A stretch of DNA of 64,000 nucleotides from Escherichia phage I29: the sequence record ON286975, one strand, 5' to 3'. The position numbers and the translations under genes are program-made. This document shows, one piece after another, positions 1,340 through 26,934 of this stretch (positions are counted from its first letter, which is position 1; each line of letters begins with the position of its first letter). The notes below the pieces were generated by a model. The model did not search any database, was not told the DNA's origin, and was given only the letters and a program-made list of their open reading frames with translations.

Positions 1340-2275
1340 ATGACAAATGAGGAACGTATGATGAAGTATTTTAATGCAGACGACCTAGTTGACAAAGGTC
1401 TTGTAACCAGTAGGTATTACCCAGATCTCGGGTTAAAGATCTATAAATATGCTAGAAAAGTATTTTACAACAATTTATGGCATTTGTCCCCTCGTTTACT
1501 GGAGTGCCGAGGCATTGTTGTAGGTAATGAAGGAAATGTTGTGGCATGGCCCTTCACAAAAGTGTTTAACTTGGGAGAAAACTCCACCAACCTGCCTGAC
1601 AATAAGCTTGTGACTGCGGTAGAGAAAAAGAACGGATTCCTTGGTGTGGTATCATCTCATAAAGGTGACCTATTGTTCTCAACAACCGGGTCTCTTGATT
1701 CTCCATATTGTAACCTTGCAAAGGAAACCATCCAAGAGCAATGTGGTAATTTAGATCTTATCAAGAAGGTTATGGGCAATGAAAACATGACATTCATGTT
1801 TGAAATTTGTCACCCTTCAGATCCGCATATTGTTCAAGAAGACCATGGCGCATATTTGATAGGTTGCAGATATAATGATTCTGGAATAATGCTACCAGAA
1901 GCAGCTTTAGATGGGATTGCCAAATACCTTGGTGCAAAACGTCCTCACACTGTGCGTGAAATCCCGTTCAGCTATGCAAAAGAATTAGCTGCAGAAACAA
2001 GGGGCGAAGGGTATATGATCCGTAAGCCTTACTACCCTTATGACCTGCAGCTGAAGATCAAGTCTCCATACTATTTGGCACGGAAGGCCGTAATGAGGGG
2101 TAAAGCTTGGAAGATTTGGGATGATGATATCTTTAAACGTATTGACGAAGAGTTTTATGGCATGGTAAACTTCATTCGTAGCAATTACACAGAAGATGTG
2201 TGGAACTGCCTCCTGGAGCAGGAACGCCGTGAGATACTTGATTGCTATTTTCACAACGAGGACTATATGCAATGA
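1340..2275 (+). CDS. RNA ligase, T4 Rnl1-like
   Basis: ECRGI, KVFNLGEN and nucleotidyltransferase motif I EKKNGFLG resemble T4 RNA ligase 1. Confidence 0.6.
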   Translation: MTNEERMMKYFNADDLVDKGLVTSRYYPDLGLKIYKYARKVFYNNLWHLSPRLLECRGIVVGNEGNVVAWPFTKVFNLGENSTNLPDNKLVTAVEKKNGFLGVVSSHKGDLLFSTTGSLDSPYCNLAKETIQEQCGNLDLIKKVMGNENMTFMFEICHPSDPHIVQEDHGAYLIGCRYNDSGIMLPEAALDGIAKYLGAKRPHTVREIPFSYAKELAAETRGEGYMIRKPYYPYDLQLKIKSPYYLARKAVMRGKAWKIWDDDIFKRIDEEFYGMVNFIRSNYTEDVWNCLLEQERREILDCYFHNEDYMQ

Positions 2276-2622
2276 AGAAGTTGATTGTGTGGCTAGATGA
2301 CTTGAGAGATCCGTCAAATTACGGAATCCAAGATGCTCTTTGGCTGAAGAACTCTTCTGAGTTCATGGATTTTATTAACGATAATAGAAAGCTCTACAGG
2401 CGCGTTTCTGAGTGGCATTTTGACAATGATCTAGGTGAAGTGCTTGAAGGGTACGACTGCTTCTCTGCGCTAGAGGAGAAACTTGTATTCGGAAAGCCAC
2501 CACTTATTGACAACGTGATTATTTTCGTGCATACTTCTAATCCATCGGCAGCTCGTAAATTTATGCTTGCTGCTGACTCATTCAAGAAGTTTGGAATAGA
2601 GATTAAACAAAACATCTACTGA
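2272..2622 (+). CDS. hypothetical protein
   Basis: ORF with GAGGA RBS, ATGA overlap with upstream stop. Confidence 0.4.
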   Translation: MKKLIVWLDDLRDPSNYGIQDALWLKNSSEFMDFINDNRKLYRRVSEWHFDNDLGEVLEGYDCFSALEEKLVFGKPPLIDNVIIFVHTSNPSAARKFMLAADSFKKFGIEIKQNIY

Positions 2623-2630
2623 GGACACTT

Positions 2631-3392
2631 ATGCGACGACTGATTATTATCTCCGGTGCTGGTTTGAGCGCTGAATCTGGTATTCCCACTTTCCGATCTG
2701 GTAGCACTGCAATGTGGGAGAATTTCAGCATCGATGAGGTGTGCAACATCCACACCTTTGCCAAGAACTACTATAAGGTGCATGACTTTTACAATGCACG
2801 TCGTGTAGCTCTGGGCAGTGTTGATCCTAACCTTGCACATCTTCGGATCGCTGAGTGGTATTCCCGCTGGTCTGGTCGTGTGATCAACCTTACTACCAAT
2901 GTAGATGATTTGCTGGAGCGTGCTGGTGTAAAACATGAAGATATTTTACATGTCCACGGGTATTTGCCTGAAATCACCTACGAAGATGCTGAAGGTAATG
3001 ATGTAATTAAAAATATCGGATACACGGAGGTAGATACAGGCAAGTATACCTGGGTTAAGCCCAATGTAGTGTTCTTCGGTGAGGTTGCTCCTAAGTATAC
3101 AGACATGTATGACCTGTTGACATCTCTCACAAGCAATGATATGGTGATCCTGGTAGGTTGTTCTAACACAGTTATTAATTTTAACTGGGAATTGTTTCCT
3201 GCTACTTGTAAAGGCACAAAACTGCTGATTGTAAACAAGTATGATTCGCAGAGTGCAGATGGAAGTGGCATTTCACGTAGCGACCTTTATCAATATGAGG
3301 ATCGCGGGATCCCTGTATGGTTTAACGGTGCTGTTGACGCTTTCTCTGATAAAGCATTTATTGAAACTGTAGAAAACTTTATGGAACTTTAA
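2631..3392 (+). CDS. Sir2-family NAD-dependent protein (sirtuin-like)
   Basis: GAGLSAESGIPTFRSG NAD-binding motif, HVHG catalytic His region, VVFFGE; no zinc-ribbon cysteines. Confidence 0.75.
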   Translation: MRRLIIISGAGLSAESGIPTFRSGSTAMWENFSIDEVCNIHTFAKNYYKVHDFYNARRVALGSVDPNLAHLRIAEWYSRWSGRVINLTTNVDDLLERAGVKHEDILHVHGYLPEITYEDAEGNDVIKNIGYTEVDTGKYTWVKPNVVFFGEVAPKYTDMYDLLTSLTSNDMVILVGCSNTVINFNWELFPATCKGTKLLIVNKYDSQSADGSGISRSDLYQYEDRGIPVWFNGAVDAFSDKAFIETVENFMEL

Positions 3393-3405
3393 AAGGAGAC
3401 CTTTA

Positions 3406-4119
3406 ATGCTGAATACTAAACTGATCGACAACCTGGAAAAACTGTCCCAGCCTGAAAACTACCTTTGGTCTGCCAACTGGGTGGAAAACTGGAACCGTGT
3501 GGCAGCTAAAGTGAAAAAATCATACACACCATTCGAATTACAGCTTAGCTTCATTGAGGAAGAGTTCAATGAGGTTTTGGAAGAGCTGGAGAAAGGTGAT
3601 GGTGGAGATCACCTGCTAAAAGAGGCCTGCGATCTTCACGTTGTCACAAGTTATGCAGCTTATCTTGTTAATGATAACCACGAAAAGTGGTCAAACCTGT
3701 TTGATAATCCGCGAGGTCTTAAGTTCAAGATCGGTGAGTTCTATGATACACTGATCGCTGCGAAAAACACATCCAAGCAAAGAGCGTCAGCTTACCGACT
3801 AGCGGAGTTATCAACAGCTTTGCTGTTCCAGCTTAGCGGGGATGTGTGTGGGATGATGCGGAAGGTTCTAAAATCTAATGACAGTAAGTTTGCACGGATC
3901 AACCATCTACGGCATTCACACGGTGCCAGTGCAGATATGCCTGCTGAACAACTCATCGAGTTGGAGATTAAAGATCTTGAGCGTCGTTTTGGTGGTCGCT
4001 ACGAAGGTTTCGTTGCTAAAGAGGAGTTCTACAACGGCAATAAAGTTATTATATTCCTTGACAGTAAAGGTAAGATTATGAAGCCTTCGAGCTTCAAGGA
4101 TGTAACAGAGTATATTTAA
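3406..4119 (+). CDS. MazG-like nucleotide pyrophosphohydrolase (tentative)
   Basis: Acidic helical EEEFNEVLEELEKGD motif. Confidence 0.35.
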   Translation: MLNTKLIDNLEKLSQPENYLWSANWVENWNRVAAKVKKSYTPFELQLSFIEEEFNEVLEELEKGDGGDHLLKEACDLHVVTSYAAYLVNDNHEKWSNLFDNPRGLKFKIGEFYDTLIAAKNTSKQRASAYRLAELSTALLFQLSGDVCGMMRKVLKSNDSKFARINHLRHSHGASADMPAEQLIELEIKDLERRFGGRYEGFVAKEEFYNGNKVIIFLDSKGKIMKPSSFKDVTEYI

Positions 4120-11822: not shown

Positions 11823-11830
11823 CAATTATA

Positions 11831-11858
11831 GGGAGGCTTGCGCCTCCCTTTTCCTTTT
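11831..11858 (+). terminator. terminator-like hairpin (may double as 5'-UTR structure)
   Basis: gggaggc-ttgc-gcctccc then ttttcctttt. Confidence 0.45.
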
Positions 11859-11867
11859 GGAGGCACT

Positions 11868-12686
11868 TTGAGCAAGAAAGAGTCCAACGACAAATATTAC
11901 ACAAACCCTGAGTATGCAGAATATCTTGTTGGTAAAGTAAAAGATAAGTATGGAAATTGTGCATACGTTGAGCCTTCTGCTGGAAGAGGTTCTTTTTCAA
12001 AACTATTTTCAGAGATACTGTCGTACGATTTAGTACCAGATCCTGAATTTGAAGGGCCAACACCGTGCATTCAGGCAAACTTCTTGGAGGTGCACCCCAA
12101 GGCAGATGTCTTCATAGGTAACCCACCATTTGGCAAGAATTCATCTTTAGCTTGCAAATTCTTCAACCATTGTGCATCATTGCTAGAGCTTGGAGGGGCC
12201 ATAGCCTTCATCTTGCCACGGACATTTGAAAAAATATTTTTTGCAAACAAATTGGACATGTCGATGCACCTTGTCTACAGCGAAAGGTGCCCTAAGAATT
12301 CGTTTTTACTTAATGGCAAACCTTATGACGTGCCGTGTGTTTTCCAAATTTGGGAGAAAAAGGCGTGTAATAGGGATCCTGTAGAGATTGGAGAGAATAA
12401 GTTATTTTCTTTTAGCACTCCAGATGACTACGACTTCTGTGTAAGACGTGTTGGGTATAATGCTGGAAAAGTATTGGGGGATGATGACCCAAAATCTGAA
12501 GAATCGACATATTTCATAAAATCTTTAGTTGACGGTGTTGACAGAGTGTTTTCTGAATGCTATTCTTCTTTTCAAGAAGAAGCAGGTAAGACTGCCGGAA
12601 TGAAGAGTATAGGCAAGAAAGAACTACAATACATTTTGGAGACCAGGTATGATCAAAAGCATAGACTTGACCAAAGAACTCACTGA
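11868..12686 (+). CDS. DNA N6-adenine methyltransferase
   Basis: FIGNPPFG motif IV; no ATG, start placed at TTG after GGAGG RBS. Confidence 0.55.
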   Translation: MSKKESNDKYYTNPEYAEYLVGKVKDKYGNCAYVEPSAGRGSFSKLFSEILSYDLVPDPEFEGPTPCIQANFLEVHPKADVFIGNPPFGKNSSLACKFFNHCASLLELGGAIAFILPRTFEKIFFANKLDMSMHLVYSERCPKNSFLLNGKPYDVPCVFQIWEKKACNRDPVEIGENKLFSFSTPDDYDFCVRRVGYNAGKVLGDDDPKSEESTYFIKSLVDGVDRVFSECYSSFQEEAGKTAGMKSIGKKELQYILETRYDQKHRLDQRTH

Positions 12687-13122: not shown

Positions 13123-13326
13123 TTGGAGACCACAATGACACTAAAGTTAACAATTCCAGACAGCTTTTCAGAAAACTTTATCCCAGAAATGATGAGTAAG
13201 ATGCGATCATTGCTTGATCAGATTGAGGAGGCTGTTTGGGAAGACGATGCTGTAGTGGCTAACGAGCTGGTAGATAAGTGTAAAAGTATTATTGATGCAG
13301 TTGAAGAATACCACGGAGGTTTTTGA
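13123..13326 (+). CDS. hypothetical acidic protein
   Basis: ORF with GGAG RBS. Confidence 0.4.
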   Translation: METTMTLKLTIPDSFSENFIPEMMSKMRSLLDQIEEAVWEDDAVVANELVDKCKSIIDAVEEYHGGF

Positions 13327-13940
13327 TGGATATTATTGTTCTTAACGCCCCACCCAGCAGTGGTAAGGATCACATTGCAGATCTCTTGTTGGAAGCTATT
13401 CCTAACTCACACCACCGTGAGGTTAAGGAGATGCTCTTCAGTGTGGCAATTAAGGCAGCTGGTGTAACTCCTCAACTCTGGAATGCCCTTTATGACCGCC
13501 ACTACAAAGAAGAGCCTTGCCCTTTCTTAATGATAGACGGCAAGCATGTTTCTCCGCGAGAATGGATGATCCATTGTAGTGAAAATCTGATTAAACCTAT
13601 CTTTGGTGAAGATGCTTTCGGTAAAGCCGCAGTCACATCTTTGAAGAAAGATTTCCCTGAAGGTAAAGGGGTTATTGTTTACTCCGATGGGGGATTCAAA
13701 GAGGAGCTGGCATGCCTTAGTGAGTACGCATACAGTACAGGTGGAGATCTGTTGTTGTTCCGTATTCACCGTGTAGGATATGACTGGGGAAATGATTCCA
13801 GAACCTACCTAAGTCTGGAAAAGAACGGAATAAAAGGGGTTGAGTTTGATGTTGTAAACCCTGAAGGTGCACCTTGGGAGTGTGCATCGGAGATTGTGTG
13901 CAAGTATATTGATGCTAAAGAGGCCCAAGAAGAATGTTAA
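13323..13940 (+). CDS. dNMP kinase-like protein (T4 gp1-like, tentative)
   Basis: Unusual Walker A ending SGKD as in T4 gp1. Confidence 0.5.
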   Translation: MMDIIVLNAPPSSGKDHIADLLLEAIPNSHHREVKEMLFSVAIKAAGVTPQLWNALYDRHYKEEPCPFLMIDGKHVSPREWMIHCSENLIKPIFGEDAFGKAAVTSLKKDFPEGKGVIVYSDGGFKEELACLSEYAYSTGGDLLLFRIHRVGYDWGNDSRTYLSLEKNGIKGVEFDVVNPEGAPWECASEIVCKYIDAKEAQEEC

Positions 13941-14527
13941 TCGGAATTGATGTAGATCTGACACTGGTAGATTCAGGAACAGCATGGTGGGAGTGGTTGG
14001 AGCGTTTGTATGGTCCAGCCAGTAAGACAGTCGCTAAACCTTCTAATGGGTTAATGTATTACGATCTGTCAAAGTATTGGCCTGATCGCCCCAAAGAAAA
14101 CATCATAGGGCCTTTTGATTTCTGGAGTGACCCGTTCCTTTACGACTTTCTTAAGCCTGAAGAGGGGGCTATTGAGGTTATGAAAGATTTGGTGGCTCGT
14201 GGTCACAAGCTTGCGTTTATCTCGGTATGCAAGAAAGGTCACCTTGCATCTAAATCAAGGTTCTTAAAGCGTTGGACCAGTGATTTTATGGATCTGGACG
14301 ATCACACCCAGGGCCACGGATTCTACGCCACACATTTCAAAGGGAATGTGGCTGTAGATGTTATAATTGACGACAGGCATGAATACCTGAACCAATTCGC
14401 TTCACGACCTGAAGTTATTAAAATCCTAAAAGATACGCCTTATGAGCAATTCGAGGAGTTAAAGGTCAGTATTGACTATACCGCCAATAGCTGGTATAAA
14501 ATAGGAAAGTTTTTAGAAGGTATTTGA
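13934..14527 (+). CDS. HAD-superfamily phosphatase (5'-nucleotidase-like)
   Basis: DxDxT motif GIDVDLT at N-terminus. Confidence 0.5.
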   Translation: MLIGIDVDLTLVDSGTAWWEWLERLYGPASKTVAKPSNGLMYYDLSKYWPDRPKENIIGPFDFWSDPFLYDFLKPEEGAIEVMKDLVARGHKLAFISVCKKGHLASKSRFLKRWTSDFMDLDDHTQGHGFYATHFKGNVAVDVIIDDRHEYLNQFASRPEVIKILKDTPYEQFEELKVSIDYTANSWYKIGKFLEGI

Positions 14528-14528
14528 A

Positions 14529-14729
14529 ATGGGCAGATGTTCTAAAGGTGGCGATCCTGTAGTCAGATACGGAGACTGGCTAGAGGTATATAATCTGGAG
14601 GGAAAGCTAGTGTATGCTTCCAGGATCACCCAGGATATGTGCTCTGATATGTTTAACAGGTACCTTGCATTTAAGGCCAACATAAACCCAGACGAAATTT
14701 CCAAAATTAAAACAAGGAGAGCTAAATAA
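14529..14729 (+). CDS. hypothetical protein
   Basis: ORF in arm orientation. Confidence 0.4.
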   Translation: MGRCSKGGDPVVRYGDWLEVYNLEGKLVYASRITQDMCSDMFNRYLAFKANINPDEISKIKTRRAK

Positions 14730-15712
14730 TGCTAAAACTGTGCACTGCAAAGATTATTGCTGACAGCATTTCCGAGAAAGGTAAGCGTATAACCACTTTT
14801 GAGCTAGAGTATCCTAGAATCATTCACTCTGAACTCATGACACACCGAGTTTTCAGCAGAAACGCCATGTCCTCTCGTGCAGTACCTGTTAACAAAATGC
14901 TGCAGCAGGTTGTGGAAAATCCTGCAATGCCAGTTCGTTTTGGTGTAAACCAGCGAGGTATGGAGGATGGTGGCGATCACGATCAGAAGATCCGTGTAGA
15001 GTATACTGATCTTGAGTTCTCTCCTGAAGAGTTCTGGAAAGAAGCTGCCAAAAATGCAGCCTGGCATGCAGAGAAGTTCGCACTTGCTGGTTACCATAAG
15101 CAAGTATGTAACCGCTTAGTGGAGCCTTTTCAGCGCATGAAAACAGTTGTAACAAGCACCGAGTGGAATAATTTTTTCCACCTCCGTTGCTGGCACGATG
15201 CGGATCCTACGATTCAGATGTTGGCTAATTGTATGTGGGAGGCTCTTGGGAATAGCACTCCTGAAATCCTTAAACCGGGTCAATGGCACACCCCATATGT
15301 AGAGCACGTTTATTTGGACGGAGAGTTTAACTACGCTGTGCGTGACACAGAAGGAAAGCTCTGCATTCTCGATACTAAAGAAGCTCTGTCTATCAGTGCT
15401 AGTTGCTGTGCACAAGTATCTTATCGAAATATTGACAGCACGTTTGAAAAGGCAGACAGTGTGGCTAAAAAATTGATTGGTGGGGATCGTATTCATGCAA
15501 GCCCTTACGAGCACCAGGCAACACCTATGGATCACGATAACGCAATGGAACGTTTAAACTACTACCTGTCTTCATGTGAAATCACACAAGACATCAGTAC
15601 TTGGCAGGAAGGTGTAACCCATCAAGACCGTGATGGTAAATTCTGGTCTGCCAACTTTTGTGGGTGGGTTCAGCACAGACAACTGCTTAATAACCACTTC
15701 GTGAAAGGTTAA
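14729..15712 (+). CDS. thyX: ThyX-like flavin-dependent thymidylate synthase family protein
   Basis: ThyX signature region THRVFSRNAMSSRAV, with T where the canonical RHR has the first Arg. Confidence 0.6.
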   Translation: MLKLCTAKIIADSISEKGKRITTFELEYPRIIHSELMTHRVFSRNAMSSRAVPVNKMLQQVVENPAMPVRFGVNQRGMEDGGDHDQKIRVEYTDLEFSPEEFWKEAAKNAAWHAEKFALAGYHKQVCNRLVEPFQRMKTVVTSTEWNNFFHLRCWHDADPTIQMLANCMWEALGNSTPEILKPGQWHTPYVEHVYLDGEFNYAVRDTEGKLCILDTKEALSISASCCAQVSYRNIDSTFEKADSVAKKLIGGDRIHASPYEHQATPMDHDNAMERLNYYLSSCEITQDISTWQEGVTHQDRDGKFWSANFCGWVQHRQLLNNHFVKG

Positions 15713-15716
15713 TCCT

Positions 15717-15740
15717 ATCACAGCGATAGGTAACTTTTGT
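15717..15740 (+). terminator. terminator-like hairpin
   Basis: cctatc-acagc-gatagg then T-rich. Confidence 0.4.
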
Positions 15741-15741
15741 G

Positions 15742-15770
15742 TTGACTAATAGTATCAGATAATCTATAAT
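15742..15770 (+). promoter_or_regulatory. sigma70-like promoter
   Basis: TTGACT-17-TATAAT. Confidence 0.6.
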
Positions 15771-15810: not shown

Positions 15811-16272
15811 ATGAGTAATGTTATGATTCCTAAAAAGACATTTATTTCAGTTACTTTGGATTTCCTATCTACCGTTCCCGGGTTTAACGTTCGCACACGA
15901 AACGGTCTCCGAGCTGCACTCTTTGCCGTAGGGTTCGATTTAAAAAGTATTGATGTTCTTCGTGGAAAAAACGTTCGATGCAAAAATAAGCCAACACATT
16001 ATCGAAAGGCAGATGTATTTGCTGGTGTCATGCGTGCAGACTTTAGATATCCGCAAATGTATAACGGTGTAGATATTTTAGATGTAGATAAAGCACCCGG
16101 TGAGGCAATGCTTGTTCAAGATCTTCCGTATGATATCCCTGTAGAGGATCGTGTTAATGTAAGAAAGTATACAAAACAATCTGAAAAGGCTGAAGATATT
16201 CATATTGTTGATGAACCTTTCAATTTTGAAGATCTGCATCGCCTGGAAAAATTATTCGGTATTGAAAGCTAA
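15811..16272 (+). CDS. hypothetical protein
   Basis: Start moved to ATG after GGAG because the track start lies inside the promoter. Confidence 0.45.
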   Translation: MSNVMIPKKTFISVTLDFLSTVPGFNVRTRNGLRAALFAVGFDLKSIDVLRGKNVRCKNKPTHYRKADVFAGVMRADFRYPQMYNGVDILDVDKAPGEAMLVQDLPYDIPVEDRVNVRKYTKQSEKAEDIHIVDEPFNFEDLHRLEKLFGIES

Positions 16273-16282
16273 GGTGGTGAAG

Positions 16283-16513
16283 ATGAGTCATAACTCCAAG
16301 TGGAAGGATCTTGGTTTTGCAAGCCGGGCAGAGTATGTTGGTTGGCTTTGGTTCAATGGCCTGACAAACGATATTAAAATGTATGATGATGTCTATTATG
16401 ACGAGTATACAGGTAAAATTATAAATATCTCTGTAGAAGAGGATACTTTTATCCAGCAAGATACTGATACCTGCCTTGATAAATACGTTAGTGAAGTGGA
16501 GGAAGCAAATTGA
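16283..16513 (+). CDS. hypothetical protein
   Basis: GGTGGTGAAG RBS then ATG. Confidence 0.4.
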   Translation: MSHNSKWKDLGFASRAEYVGWLWFNGLTNDIKMYDDVYYDEYTGKIINISVEEDTFIQQDTDTCLDKYVSEVEEAN

Positions 16514-18825
16514 TCACCAAGGTAATTAAAAGCAACGGATGTGAAGTGGCATTCGATCCAGAACGTTTAAATAAGGCAGCTATTTTCGGTGACGACGGTA
16601 ACGGCAATTGGTCACACATTGCACTGGATGCATACAAACGACTGTATGATGGATGTACAACCAAAGAAGTTAACCAAGCTATCATAGACTCCTGTGTTAG
16701 CCGTAAAGACGAAGCACATTCCCGTATGGCTGGTCGTGTTCTTATTGGTCAGATTTATAAAGAGGCTTTTGGAGGGTTTACAAAGATCCCTTCCTTACCA
16801 TCATTTTACAATACCATGGTTGAGAAAGGGTATTGGGAGGATATGGGCTATAGCTTTACCGAGCTAAACACTTTAGACGCTGTTATTGACCACAGTAAAG
16901 ATCTCGGTTATGGCTATGCAGTCCTTAAACAGTTTCGCGACAAATACGGGATCAAGGATACTCTTAAAGACACCCTGTTTGAATCTCCCCAGATGATGTT
17001 TATGGGGATAGCAATGGCTGTCATGAAGAATATGCCGAAAGAACGTCGTATCAACGATGTTGTAAAATTGTACACTTATCTGTCCGACTTAAAGATCAAT
17101 GCCCCGACACCGTACTTAAACGGGCTGCGCACAGGTAAGACAGGGTATGCATCTTGTTGTGTAATAAAAGCTGACGATACAGCAAAATCTATTGGTGTGG
17201 CACGTGAAGTTGCGTACACAATGACGGTTAACCAAGCAGGTATCGGCTACTATTTATCATCAAGATCTGCAGGCGATGGTGTTCGTGGTAACACTATTAA
17301 ACATATGGGTAAGATTCCATATTATCGAGGTATTGATGCTGGGGTTAAGGAGAACAGACAACAATCACGTGGCGGTTCTGCAACAGTATCATTCCTTGCA
17401 CTGGACCCGCAGATTGATGAGCTAATCCGTTTGAGAAACCCTATGACTGTTGCTTCAAAAAGAATCAACACCATGGACTACTCCATCGGTATTAATAGGT
17501 CGTTTATCAACCGTGTGGCTAAGAATTTGGATTGGATGCTTGTTTCTTATAAGCACGCGCCTCAACTGCATGAGGGTATCTTCACCATGTCTATGGAGGA
17601 GTTTGATGCAGAGGTTGATCGTATCGCTAAAGATGACAGTATTCCTAAAACATGGATCCGAGCTAGAGATCTTGCTGTTGAGCTGATCACGCAGCGTACC
17701 GAGGTGGGAAGACTGTACGTATACTGGACAGATGAGATGAATAGACATACACCTTTTAAAGATGTGATCTATTCAAGTAACCTGTGTGCAGAAATAGCTC
17801 TCCCGACAAAAGGCTATTCAGATATGCGTAATATCTTCAAGCACGATGTTGATGATGGCGAAGTTGCATTGTGCTTCCTGTCATCTCTTGTAGCTGGAAG
17901 GGTTACCCCAGAGGAGTATGAGGATGTTGCATACTACACGGTGCTTATGATTGACAATGTTATGGAAATCATGACATATCCGTATGAAAATATGGAAAGC
18001 ACAGTTAAAAAACGCAGATCCATCGGGGTTGGCCTTACCAATGTTGCACATTTTATTGCCAGCCACAAGGTTACTTACGGATCTCCTGAAAGTAAACAGC
18101 TCGTTCACGATCTTGCAGAACTTCACAGCTACAGCTTGCATAAGGCAAGTTTACGGTTGGCAAAAGAGCGTGGTGTCTGCGAGTGGATGCATAAAACAAA
18201 ATATCCAGAAGGTTGGTTACCAATCGACACCTACAACAAAGAGGTCGATAGCGTGGTGAAAGATCCTTCTCTTAAACAGGATTGGGAAGGGTTACGTAAA
18301 GAAATCATTGAAAATGGTGGGCTACGTAATAGCGTTCTTGAAGCATATATGCCTAATGAAAGCTCTTCGCTGGCAACAAACACCACTAACGGGGTTTATC
18401 CTGTCCGTGAGCACATTATCTTTAAAAAGTCGCCACAAGGGCAGGTGCTGTTTATCGTTCCTGACTATGATGAGTTGAAAGAGTATTACACCTCGGCTTG
18501 GGACGTTGATACTAACGACATGATCGATATGTATGCTGTAATTCAAAAATTCACAGGTCAGGCAATCAGCGCGGATTTATACATAGACTACACCAAGTTG
18601 AAAGATGGTAAAATTTCAATGAAGGAGCAGTTAGGGTACCTTATCCGTGCCACTAAATTCGGGATGAAGACATGGTATTATTTAAACTCTAGGGTTGGTG
18701 CTGGTGACTCCTTGGCAGAGGAACTTCATGCCAAGAAACAGGCTGAAGATGAAACCAGAAAGAACTATCCTTTGATTGCAGATAGTTCAGTTGAAGATCC
18801 GTATTGCGAAAGCTGTGCACTATAA
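16510..18825 (+). CDS. nrdA: ribonucleotide reductase class Ia alpha subunit
   Basis: 771 aa; active-site region SSNLCAEIALPT; directly upstream of nrdB. Confidence 0.9.
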   Translation: MITKVIKSNGCEVAFDPERLNKAAIFGDDGNGNWSHIALDAYKRLYDGCTTKEVNQAIIDSCVSRKDEAHSRMAGRVLIGQIYKEAFGGFTKIPSLPSFYNTMVEKGYWEDMGYSFTELNTLDAVIDHSKDLGYGYAVLKQFRDKYGIKDTLKDTLFESPQMMFMGIAMAVMKNMPKERRINDVVKLYTYLSDLKINAPTPYLNGLRTGKTGYASCCVIKADDTAKSIGVAREVAYTMTVNQAGIGYYLSSRSAGDGVRGNTIKHMGKIPYYRGIDAGVKENRQQSRGGSATVSFLALDPQIDELIRLRNPMTVASKRINTMDYSIGINRSFINRVAKNLDWMLVSYKHAPQLHEGIFTMSMEEFDAEVDRIAKDDSIPKTWIRARDLAVELITQRTEVGRLYVYWTDEMNRHTPFKDVIYSSNLCAEIALPTKGYSDMRNIFKHDVDDGEVALCFLSSLVAGRVTPEEYEDVAYYTVLMIDNVMEIMTYPYENMESTVKKRRSIGVGLTNVAHFIASHKVTYGSPESKQLVHDLAELHSYSLHKASLRLAKERGVCEWMHKTKYPEGWLPIDTYNKEVDSVVKDPSLKQDWEGLRKEIIENGGLRNSVLEAYMPNESSSLATNTTNGVYPVREHIIFKKSPQGQVLFIVPDYDELKEYYTSAWDVDTNDMIDMYAVIQKFTGQAISADLYIDYTKLKDGKISMKEQLGYLIRATKFGMKTWYYLNSRVGAGDSLAEELHAKKQAEDETRKNYPLIADSSVEDPYCESCAL

Positions 18826-25884: not shown

Positions 25885-26934
25885 ATGAATTTAACACCTC
25901 GCAGCACCATGGTACACGGCATGAAAGAAAAACAGAACGGTTTCGAACCTATGAGTAATAAAATGTTTGGTATGCCGGGCGGTATCATGGAAACATACAG
26001 CTACCCAACACCTGTTGTTGACCACGTTCTTTATATCGACGATTTGGAGGACCTGCAGGATCATATGTCTCGTCTGCAGACGATCCGTATGGCTCAGCCG
26101 GAAGAAAGCATTCGTGTGATCATCAATAGCCCTGGTGGTTGCGTGCACATTGCAATGGCTTATCTGCAGGCATTCCGCGAGTCTCAGGCAAGCGTTGTTG
26201 CACATGCTGAAGGGATGTGCTGCTCTGCTGGAACAATCTTATGGCTTGGTTGCAAAGAACGTACTGTGGCTCCGGACACAGAATTTATGTTCCACTACTA
26301 TCAAGGTGGCACTTATGGTAACGGTGTTAACATGAATACTCAGGTCAGCTACTGGAAAAAACGTTTTGAACACCTGATCGAAAAATACTACGGTGGGGTG
26401 CTGACAGAAGATGAGATCGCATCCATCACAGCTGGTGGCGAAGTGTGGTTGGACGGAGAAGAGTTGGCAGCACGCACTGGAGCTATTATTCTGGATGAAG
26501 GCAACATACAACGCATCCAGAACGGACAAAAACCGAAAAAGCTTCTGGCAAAAGGTGATGAAGAAGGCGTGTTAGGTGAAGCAGGTCTTCCGGAGATTCA
26601 TCAGTGCACATCTTTAGATGAGTTAGTTCATGCTGTTGAATCTGCAAAAGCGGGTGGTTCGAAAGGTGATGTTCACACTGTGTTCCTGAATCTGCAGATG
26701 GAAAGTGGCGAGACCGTCCGAATTGCCCTGGGTGAGATTACTTCAGAAGATCTGCAGAGATTCTCTGTCGTTGAACTTCAGGATATTCTGTCTCAATTGA
26801 AGACTACTCTGAACGGCGGTGAAGAGGTTAAGGTGAAAGATAAGACTCGCAAGCGTCTTGTGGACAATATTATTAAAACAGCAAAAGAGCTCAATGAAAA
26901 AATCCTGGGTGCAGGAATTGTCGAAGAAGCTTAA
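25885..26934 (+). CDS. ClpP/S14-family serine peptidase-like protein with acidic C-terminal extension
   Basis: INSPGG, GMCCSAGT (Ser), FMFHYYQGG (His) in ClpP-like order. Confidence 0.6.
   Translation: MNLTPRSTMVHGMKEKQNGFEPMSNKMFGMPGGIMETYSYPTPVVDHVLYIDDLEDLQDHMSRLQTIRMAQPEESIRVIINSPGGCVHIAMAYLQAFRESQASVVAHAEGMCCSAGTILWLGCKERTVAPDTEFMFHYYQGGTYGNGVNMNTQVSYWKKRFEHLIEKYYGGVLTEDEIASITAGGEVWLDGEELAARTGAIILDEGNIQRIQNGQKPKKLLAKGDEEGVLGEAGLPEIHQCTSLDELVHAVESAKAGGSKGDVHTVFLNLQMESGETVRIALGEITSEDLQRFSVVELQDILSQLKTTLNGGEEVKVKDKTRKRLVDNIIKTAKELNEKILGAGIVEEA

Follow-up and report, generated by a model that had tools for sequence, protein, structure and literature searches.

A nucleotide-metabolism gene cluster with an apparently circularly permuted ThyX-family protein upstream of the ribonucleotide reductase genes of an rV5-like Escherichia phage

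Phages with 5-hydroxymethyluracil (hmU) in their DNA prepare the modified nucleotide before replication by means of a thymidylate synthase (TS) homologue, a dTMPase, a dTTPase, a dCMP deaminase and a deoxynucleoside monophosphate (dNMP) kinase (PMC8989533). The dTMPase of phage PBS1 is an mdN-like enzyme (PMC12697855). Canonical ThyX proteins, which are found beside ribonucleotide reductase (RNR) genes, are another known system for comparison. Escherichia phage I29 (sequence record ON286975), of which a stretch of 64,000 nucleotides was analysed and is called the window here, carries a gene cluster that can be compared with both. It encodes a kinase related to gp1 of phage T4, a phosphatase of the HAD type and a ThyX-family protein with an altered signature. 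A sequence-only reading of these genes had proposed that they could mark a modified pyrimidine pathway rather than plain dTMP synthesis. The template for that proposal, a TS homologue paired with a dNMP kinase, is a real one, and with the nucleotidase added it resembles the route of the hmU phages. Of the five activity classes known from SPO1/SP8 and ViI/M6, the window holds three (TS homologue, nucleotidase and dNMP kinase). However, the one-carbon enzyme of those phages is a ThyA homologue, whereas the window has a ThyX.

We consider it likely that the cluster is the 3' end of an operon which supplies canonical dTMP and deoxynucleoside triphosphates (dNTPs), with the RNR genes immediately downstream. 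Direct support for the family and fold of the three enzymes, the permutation, the conservation of dUMP-contact equivalents, the operon structure and the wide distribution comes from the comparisons set out below. The 327-amino acid (aa) protein would be a flavin-dependent thymidylate synthase, converting dUMP to dTMP with methylenetetrahydrofolate, FAD and a reductant. Its residues 20-190 would correspond to residues 60-205 of Thermotoga maritima ThyX, including the (T)HR...S....SxR loop and the arginines equivalent to R147 and R174. Residues ~195-262 would correspond to T. maritima 3-59, a beta-hairpin and two helices that carry the folate-loop serine and the stacking histidine of HxxPFEH. 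The gp1-like kinase would then convert dTMP to the diphosphate and probably do the same with other dNMPs set free from host DNA, host NDP kinase would complete the conversion to dNTPs, and RNR would contribute to the same supply. The mdN-like HAD protein would act as a 5'(3')-deoxyribonucleotidase, probably with a preference for pyrimidines, and may form a substrate cycle with the kinase that trims dUMP/dTMP or 3'-dNMP pools, although this role is speculative. In this scheme we infer the dTMP product, the use of FAD, the substrate ranges of kinase and nucleotidase, and the purpose of the latter.

Escherichia phages JeffSchatz (BASEL Bas55), nom and Phage 203/206 share 99.2% identity with the window over the 2.39-kb stretch that holds the cluster. 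In total 120 phage records match this stretch at an identity of at least 90%, nearly all of them rV5-like Vequintavirus, and by this comparison the window is that of a Vequintavirus and a relative of JeffSchatz/Bas55. Four genes make up the unit (13326-15712, + strand), in the order kinase, HAD, a 66-aa open reading frame (ORF) and ThyX-like (Table 1). Between the kinase and HAD genes there is an overlap of 7 nt, a gap of 1 nt separates HAD from the 66-aa ORF, and the latter shares 1 nt with the ThyX gene (TAATG); the four are translationally coupled. The three enzyme genes had been described as contiguous, and tightly coupled they are, but the 66-aa ORF is a fourth gene between HAD and ThyX and the start of the kinase gene has to be moved. 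This start is most likely ATG 13326 and not TTG 13323, because this ATG shares nucleotides with the TGA that ends the upstream ORF and is preceded by GGAGG, and because the JeffSchatz annotation begins there too. PHROG E-values of 1.3e-44 (kinase), 3e-47 (HAD), 3.5e-35 (66-aa ORF) and 1e-111 (ThyX-like), together with the conservation in the 120 records, indicate that these are four real genes and not chance ORFs.

Table 1. Features of the cluster and its 3' surroundings (window coordinates; Tm, T. maritima ThyX)
Feature	Position	Strand	Details
T4 gp1-like dNMP kinase, 204 aa	13326-13940	+	ORF listed from TTG 13323
Kinase P-loop	13347-13370	+	APPSSGKD; re-translated
NT5C/mdN-type HAD phosphatase, 5'(3')-deoxyribonucleotidase family	13934-14527	+	Pfam, PHROG, motifs
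HAD motif DVDLT	13949-13963	+	translation
HAD motif SK	14249-14254	+	translation
HAD motif DD	14369-14374	+	translation
Conserved 66-aa ORF	14529-14729	+	phrog_4903, E 3.5e-35; between HAD and ThyX genes
Circularly permuted ThyX-family protein, 327 aa, putative flavin-dependent thymidylate synthase	14729-15712	+	
Variant ThyX signature, THRVFSRNAMSSR	14840-14878	+	T38-H39-R40-V-F-S43-R-N45-A-M-S48-S49-R50
Second active-site segment	15098-15187	+	K124-Q125..N128-R129 ~ Tm R143-E144..R147; N148-F..L-R153 ~ Tm N169..R174
Relocated N-terminal module of canonical ThyX	15410-15514	+	hhalign, profile search
C-terminal G312-W-V-Q315-H-R317-Q, possible relic of second RQWFRHR helix	15662-15682	+	Q315, R317 invariant
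Terminator-like hairpin directly 3' of ThyX stop	15714-15730	+	CCTATCACAGCGATAGG then TAACTTTTGT; consensus match only
Best sigma-70-like promoter match of the region	15742-15770	+	TTGACT-17-TATAAT, 11/12; consensus match only
Class I ribonucleotide reductase alpha subunit (nrdA)	16510-18825	+	window ORF and JeffSchatz annotation

The ThyX-like protein matches Pfam Thy1 (PF02511) with 38.4 bits against a cut-off of 24.8, over profile positions 60-190 of 191 only, and all of the top 50 Foldseek matches were ThyX or PolB. Its assignment to the ThyX family is real but weak by standard models, and the weak and partial scores can be attributed to a circular permutation of its segments. The fold held in common with canonical ThyX (T. 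maritima TM0449, 1KQ4/1O26; PBCV-1 A674R, 4FZB; Mycobacterium tuberculosis, 2AF6) extends over ~135-160 residues. In contrast to these proteins, that of the window has a ~40-residue insertion after the signature loop and a ~65-residue C-terminal tail with an invariant Q-x-R.

In this clade the N-terminal helices of the ThyX fold, with the folate-loop serine and the histidine of HxxPFEH, appear to come last. An alignment of 11 sequences (32-59% identity), which includes N4 gp30, ICP1 gp193, phiCbK-like Ccr10, and proteins of one Cellulophaga and one Acinetobacter phage, was compared with a canonical ThyX profile using hhalign. Two matches were obtained in swapped order: residues 21-193 with T. 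maritima ~61-205 (E 1.8e-6) and residues 214-263 with T. maritima 19-64 (E 5.5e-6; 3e-7 for the C-terminal slice alone). At the level of sequence profiles, the window protein does not follow the collinear order of the canonical fold but has the equivalent of canonical 3-59 placed after that of 60-205. Within the relocated module A228-Q-V-S231-Y-R aligns to the T. maritima folate loop A-R-V-S30-F-D, and H256-A-S-P-Y-E-H262 aligns to H53-E-T-P-F-E-H59. A profile of the canonical N-terminal part, run with hmmsearch, likewise matched the C-terminal region (119 domain hits, 120 family members, best p ~1e-5). When the order was restored in silico by placing residues 195-262 before 21-190, the Pfam score rose from 38.4 to 50.6 bits and became one continuous match to profile positions 15-190. 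Comparable gains were seen with N4 gp30 (41.6 to 54.5 bits), Ccr10 (36.2 to 46.7) and fJoAci01 (18.9 to 28.5), so that de-permutation added 10-13 bits in four of four proteins. Pfam searches with isolated C-terminal segments gave no Thy1 match, probably owing to HMMER filters; the relationship emerged only from profile-profile comparison, unfiltered hmmsearch and de-permutation.

A full tandem duplication, with a second complete ThyX repeat, was also considered and set aside, as only the equivalent of T. maritima 3-64 is supported. The C-terminal GWVQHRQ compares with canonical RQWfRHRiaSyN at p ~3e-3 only, which is suggestive and not established. No description of a ThyX permutation was found in the searchable literature, which is weak negative evidence. 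Permutation and the two lost residues discussed below would account for the position of such proteins at the noise edge of curated models and for the missing product name of N4 gp30 (NC_008720, 13843-14784) in RefSeq.

The variant signature, noted in the earlier reading as THR...S....SSR for RHR, is present and aligns to T. maritima R78-H79-R80...S83.N85..S88-G89-R90. Instead of RHRxxxxxxxS the protein reads THRVFSRNAMS, in which the histidine, the second arginine and the serine are kept and the first arginine is absent, its place being taken by T38. Across the 11 sequences ~45 positions are invariant, among them T38, H39, R40, N45, S48, S49, R50 and A51. The second active-site segment was mapped from the hhalign alignment and re-indexed by hand; its residues are invariant in the 11 sequences. 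The residues through which T. maritima ThyX contacts dUMP (S88, R90, R147 and R174) correspond to S48, R50, R129 and R153, all of them invariant. Also conserved, in part by similar residues, are H79 (H39), R80 (R40), S83 (S43), N85 (N45), N169 (N148), R143 (K124) and E144 (Q125). The relocated module retains S30 as S231, H53 as H256, T55 as S258, E58 as E261 and H59 as H262, and H39, R40, N45, N148, S231, H256, S258, E261 and H262 are invariant in the clade alignment. Changes are seen at E86 (A46), G89 (S49), N163 (T142), R165 (T144) and H178 (D157). R174 of ThyX reads the O4/N3 face of uracil. With the residues that align to the phosphate and uracil contacts all kept, dUMP is indicated as the probable substrate.

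Clustered at 50% identity, the clade with the THR signature comprises 5,507 representatives, 3,348 of them scoring at E <= 1e-30. Members were found in 1,035 phage records, from Vequintavirinae, Phapecoctavirus, ICP1, PAK_P1-like and other Pseudomonas myoviruses, N4-like podoviruses, phiCbK-like and Cellulophaga phages, and include coliphage N4 gp30 and ICP1 gp193. The gp30 gene lies four genes downstream of gp26, the N4 dCTP deaminase, a position in keeping with dTMP synthesis from dCTP by way of dUTP and dUMP. The PhAPEC7 gene is also near a dCTP deaminase. Nothing specific was found in the literature on the rV5 ThyX or on an N4 thymidylate synthase.

Inteins (Pfam Intein_splicing with HNH, or LAGLIDADG_3) account for the length of 520-680 aa seen in roughly 15 of the 150 best representatives of the family. 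These long homologues were considered as possible tandem ThyX proteins, which was rejected since the extra length is intein. In window numbering the inteins are inserted after H33 (33/34), at 43, 48 and 153-156, and at 256/257. Written as motifs these sites are HS/ELMTHR, S43 and S48, LRxx/ and H256/ASPxEH (the slash marks the insertion), all within putative catalytic motifs. Two homologues have the intein after R153 and six after H256. Inteins typically home into functionally constrained sites. Their positions inside these motifs independently support an active enzyme and a catalytic role for the relocated HASPxEH.

The kinase had been read from the sequence as T4 gp1-like with a Walker A motif ending in GKD, and both its PHROG family and the gp1 fold back that identity. 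Its match to phrog_139 ('deoxynucleoside monophosphate kinase') covers the part of the profile that T4 gp1 covers too (1.8e-65 for gp1, the reference sequence of which is identical to PDB 1DEK). The best structural match of the kinase is gp1 and not a polynucleotide kinase (PNK). At the sequence level the two are distant, with 17% identity, no significant pairwise BLASTP match and 241 aa in gp1 (1DEK/1DEL) against 204 aa. In pairwise and small-profile comparisons no significant similarity was found beyond the P-loop, GVKRSGKD in gp1, with which the window kinase shares the GKD. Searches of Pfam and NCBIfam gave no match for the kinase. T4 gp1 is specialised for 5-hydroxymethyl-dCMP, dTMP and dGMP. 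The label 'T4 gp1-like' is supported, and phosphorylation of dNMPs is predicted for the window protein. The phrog_139 family was found in 1,527 phage records, T1-like siphoviruses included, and we know of no base replacement in T1-like phages.

The DxDxT phosphatase is likewise where the sequence-only reading had it, and its identity can be sharpened: by sequence it is an mdN-like 5'(3')-deoxyribonucleotidase of the NT5C type. Its motif residues are DVDLT (motif I), S97 (II), K107 (III) and D146-D147 (IV), with a cap region of ~85 residues between motifs I and II. Among HAD enzymes a long cap insert goes with small-molecule substrates. In an alignment of seven family members (27-49% identity) D6, D8, K107 and D146-D147 do not vary, and Ser or Thr occupies position 97. 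The protein matches Pfam NT5C (PF06941) over profile positions 2-158 of 180 with 26.9 bits against a cut-off of 24.8, a small margin, and its PHROG match is phrog_420. When the family profile was searched against the PDB, 3BWV, a putative 5'(3')-deoxyribonucleotidase, was matched at 2.7e-10 (query 3-165) and human mdN (1MH9) at 5.7e-4 (query 48-190), with cdN weaker; only deoxyribonucleotidases were matched and no Pnkp phosphatase. HAD motifs I-IV are shared, and the alignment runs through the cap, with the NT5C enzymes (3BWV, human mdN 1MH9/1Z4K, cdN and PBS1 Dtm). The relationship is distant by the scores just given, and motif I of the window protein is DxDLT where these have DMDGV. PBS1 Dtm removes dTMP and leads to dU-DNA, whereas the HAD protein of the window coexists with a thymidylate synthase. 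As a comparator from a phage with canonical DNA, the T5 nucleotidase Dmp gave no Pfam match.

The recurring theme in the neighbourhood of the HAD gene is thymidine-nucleotide metabolism. It overlaps the gp1-like kinase gene in ICP1 (gp170/gp171), Cronobacter phage CR3 and Vibrio phage F94. In Phapecoctavirus a ThyX gene of the window's type follows it directly, in CR3 too it adjoins ThyX, and in AV123-like phages a thymidine kinase is annotated under the HAD match. A distant HAD homologue (24-29% identity) is found in Ackermannviridae (Salmonella phage GEC_vB_GOT, 147704-148546; Serratia phage KNP4), where it is annotated as a 5'(3')-deoxyribonucleotidase and lies beside a DNA polymerase gene. 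ViI-like members of this family have hypermodified thymidine, and the homologue could be their dTMPase. In T1-like siphoviruses (Klebsiella phage Sushi, stretch positions 2016-3082) a gp1-like kinase of phrog_139 overlaps the gene of a short, capless HAD phosphatase of the Pnkp type (phrog_415), with no thymidylate synthase or RNR gene nearby in the stretch shown. The phrog_139 kinases of rV5-like and ICP1 phages pair with the capped NT5C type, so that two HAD subfamilies accompany one kinase family.

The slot between HAD and ThyX holds small ORFs in other phages too. The product of the 66-aa ORF shares 45% identity (E 3e-16) with that of the same-slot ORF of CR3, and gave no match in Pfam or NCBIfam. 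It may serve one of the enzymes as an accessory subunit.

Several points weigh against the canonical supply of dTMP by this cluster. S231, H256 and N45 of the flavin/folate set are present in the ThyX-like protein, but the equivalents of R78 and Y91 are T38 and A51, both invariant. In T. maritima ThyX R78 faces N1 and C2=O of the flavin and stabilises FADH-, and Y91 hydrogen-bonds H53 (PMC11940539), so the altered signature touches a mechanistically relevant residue. In the alignment to the characterised ThyX active site, which had been proposed as a check of the modified-pyrimidine idea, the equivalents of R78 and Y91 are altered and every residue aligned with a dUMP contact is conserved. R44 and R317 are candidates for an arginine that substitutes for R78. 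The AlphaFold2 model has low confidence at the motif loops (residues 37-41 and 234-259). The protein does not reach the cut-off of the thyX equivalog model TIGR02170 (37.7 against 87.9 bits), and searches of PDB sequences with phmmer or hmmsearch matched nothing. In the literature no biochemical report was found for any member of the permuted clade. A nucleotidase that prefers dUMP/dTMP looks counter-productive beside a thymidylate synthase, and pool trimming as its purpose is speculation. Finally, the in vivo restriction data considered below speak to global replacement of T and not to rare or site-specific modification.

The ThyX-like enzyme might methylate another pyrimidine nucleotide, either UMP, as PolB does, or dCMP, and would then not be a dedicated dTMP synthase. 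PolB (4P5A) methylates UMP and dUMP in polyoxin biosynthesis; it has the collinear order of ThyX and comes from a Streptomyces natural-product cluster, and its score could not be separated from those of true ThyX structures. The alanine at the Y91 position and the failure to reach the TIGR02170 threshold could be read in this way. However, the phage context gives no hint of ribonucleotide substrates, the gene being placed among genes of dNTP supply (RNR, dNMP kinase and deoxyribonucleotidase), and the invariant equivalent of R174 argues against cytosine. The sensitivity of a close relative to EcoRI and EcoRV argues against global 5-methylcytosine, by comparison with data on Xp12 (PMC7653180). 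We regard a substrate other than dUMP as very improbable.

The modified-pyrimidine proposal holds that the variant ThyX makes, for example, 5-hydroxymethyl-dUMP (5-hmdUMP), through capture of water by the exocyclic-methylene intermediate, that the kinase phosphorylates this product and that the nucleotidase removes the competing dTMP; a modified base would then be present in virion DNA. The three activities shared with the hmU pre-replicative pathway, the mdN-like nature of the PBS1 dTMPase and the HAD homologue in ViI-like phages with hypermodified T (24% identity) are in keeping with it. Without R78, the arginine at flavin N1, and Y91, the redox step could differ, and the literature yields no characterised member of the clade. 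Set against this are the conserved uracil and phosphate contacts and the restriction phenotype of JeffSchatz. The Vequintavirinae were described as 'exceptionally susceptible' to restriction-modification systems in the BASEL study (PMC8594841). In the BASEL raw data the efficiency of plating of JeffSchatz on EcoRI was 3.5e-4 to 1.7e-3 over seven experiments, a restriction of ~1,000-fold, and on EcoRV and EcoCFT_II it was below detection except for one EcoRV value of 3e-7. In vitro, EcoRI fails completely to cut SP8 DNA, in which 5hmdU substitution is 100% (PMC7653180), and dU-DNA resists enzymes with T-containing sites. Given this sensitivity on the one hand and the resistance of 5hmdU and dU DNA on the other, a global replacement of T by hmU, dU or a bulkier base is very unlikely.

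Gene content and distribution point the same way. In ~62 kb of JeffSchatz (104,014-130,400 and 67,700-104,100), the counterpart of most of the window, no dTTPase, dCMP deaminase, glycosyltransferase, 5-hmdU DNA kinase or other post-replicative modification gene is annotated, although many ORFs there are hypothetical, whereas the SPO1/SP8 and ViI/M6 pathway includes a dTTPase and a dCMP deaminase. THR is invariant throughout the clade, which includes the proteins of N4, ICP1, PAK_P1-like and phiCbK-like phages; to our knowledge none of these carries modified DNA, and DNA of JG004 is cut by HindIII. No nucleoside or nanopore analysis of Vequintavirus DNA was found in the literature. The same cluster also occurs with a ThyX of canonical length in Aeromonas phage 2L372X, in which this gene lies two small genes downstream of HAD and a kinase-like slot is present too. 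A dedicated modified-pyrimidine pathway is therefore highly improbable, and the proposal made from the sequence is not supported. A narrower version of it, in which the clade without R78 and Y91 (the tyrosine gating the active-site loop) performs a non-reductive one-carbon transfer to 5-hmdUMP, or acts on another pyrimidine nucleotide, and together with the kinase and nucleotidase supplies a partial, transient or site-restricted modification that leaves EcoRI and EcoRV sites unprotected, has in our judgement an equally slender chance. If true, such a modification would have gone unseen in over 1,000 sequenced phages.

Two further observations were made on 2L372X. Its gp177, at the kinase position, was considered as a counterpart of the kinase and dropped, as it is not a P-loop kinase. 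Its ThyX (stretch positions 3028-3738) is collinear, scoring 144.7 bits over the full Pfam profile, and has KHQ in place of RHR (GKHQSGFSWNERSMRY). The first arginine of the signature is thus not universal even in collinear phage ThyX proteins.

Kinase and HAD phosphatase could also form a split polynucleotide 5'-kinase/3'-phosphatase like T4 Pnkp, healing ends together with the phage ligases and unrelated to ThyX. In T4 Pnkp, too, a P-loop kinase is joined to a HAD phosphatase with DxDxT. The T1-like phages have comparable split pairs, phrog_139 kinase with phrog_415 HAD, and the overlapping pair in ICP1, CR3 and Vibrio phage F94 is conserved independently of ThyX adjacency. An RNA ligase and a DNA ligase are annotated 8-12 kb upstream in JeffSchatz, and pairwise hhalign aligned the P-loop alone, with gp1 and Pnkp alike. 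However, T4 Pnkp is found in phrog_505 and does not match phrog_139, and the family profile of the kinase scored 15.1 bits with gp1 against 3.5 with Pnkp. The HAD of T4 Pnkp is capless, whereas that of the window is capped and, as a family, matches 5'(3')-deoxyribonucleotidases only in the PDB; compared with T4 Pnkp by hhalign it reached a probability of 1%. The window pair thus has neither a PNK-type kinase fold nor a capless Pnkp-type HAD, and we consider this explanation extremely improbable. A catalytically inactive or regulatory paralogue in place of an active ThyX, as the loss of R78 and Y91 and the weak family scores might suggest, is scarcely credible in view of the ~45 invariant positions, which include every other mapped active-site residue, the 5,507 clusters of the family, inteins placed in a pattern typical of functional constraint, and the lack of any other annotated thymidylate synthase in the examined parts of JeffSchatz.

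The surroundings of the cluster are consistent with the favoured reading of canonical dTMP and dNTP supply. In the collinear region of JeffSchatz the gene order is DnaQ-like exonuclease, putative N6-adenine methyltransferase, two hypothetical genes, 'putative P-loop NTPase', two hypothetical genes, 'thymidylate synthase', two small genes, nrdA, nrdB, glutaredoxin, nrdD, nrdG and phoH; the last five are thus annotated downstream of nrdA. The hairpin after the ThyX stop and the sigma-70-like site behind it, which precedes the next genes toward nrdA, suggest that the four-gene cluster is probably the end of a transcription unit. Promoter-like sites overall were not more numerous than expected from shuffled sequence. 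The promoter-like site would leave the annotated ATG 15772 of the next gene with almost no leader; the PHROG match of this gene begins at protein residue 14, pointing to a start further downstream, near 15811.

Upstream, a strong bidirectional terminator-like hairpin (11830-11849, 8-bp stem with six GC pairs) lies 3' of the DnaQ-like exonuclease gene. Between it and the kinase gene is a putative N6-adenine DNA methyltransferase gene (11838-12686, +), which is probably in the same transcription unit as the kinase. A second putative N6-adenine DNA methyltransferase gene is placed at ~25930-26460 (+) by collinearity with bas55_0173 of JeffSchatz, and no function in DNA modification other than adenine methylation is evident in the window.

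Among the matches, 19-39 records in all are labelled 'Campylobacter phage' (host Campylobacter jejuni), yet their proteins are 97-99.5% identical to those of rV5-like phages of E. coli, or they are similar to T1-like coliphages. Examples are MG065690 (A135), MG065635 (C12), MG065662 (A142), MG065639 (A150) and MG065675 (A118). This looks like mislabelling of the host or mixed lysates.

As the candidacy of this locus for a modified base fails, a search for modified nucleosides by liquid chromatography-mass spectrometry can take low priority. Finding a TS homologue together with a dNMP kinase and a nucleotidase is not in itself diagnostic of base replacement. The cluster itself is of low interest, and the permuted clade without R78 presents a moderately interesting point of enzymology. 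The recurrence of an mdN-like nucleotidase beside thymidylate synthase, thymidine kinase and gp1-like kinase genes raises a testable question on the balance of pyrimidine dNTPs in lytic phages. One of the commonest types of phage thymidylate synthase appears to be a circular permutant of ThyX that lacks two residues regarded as important in flavin chemistry, and the clade as a whole may offer enzymologists a natural test of what ThyX catalysis requires of its residues.

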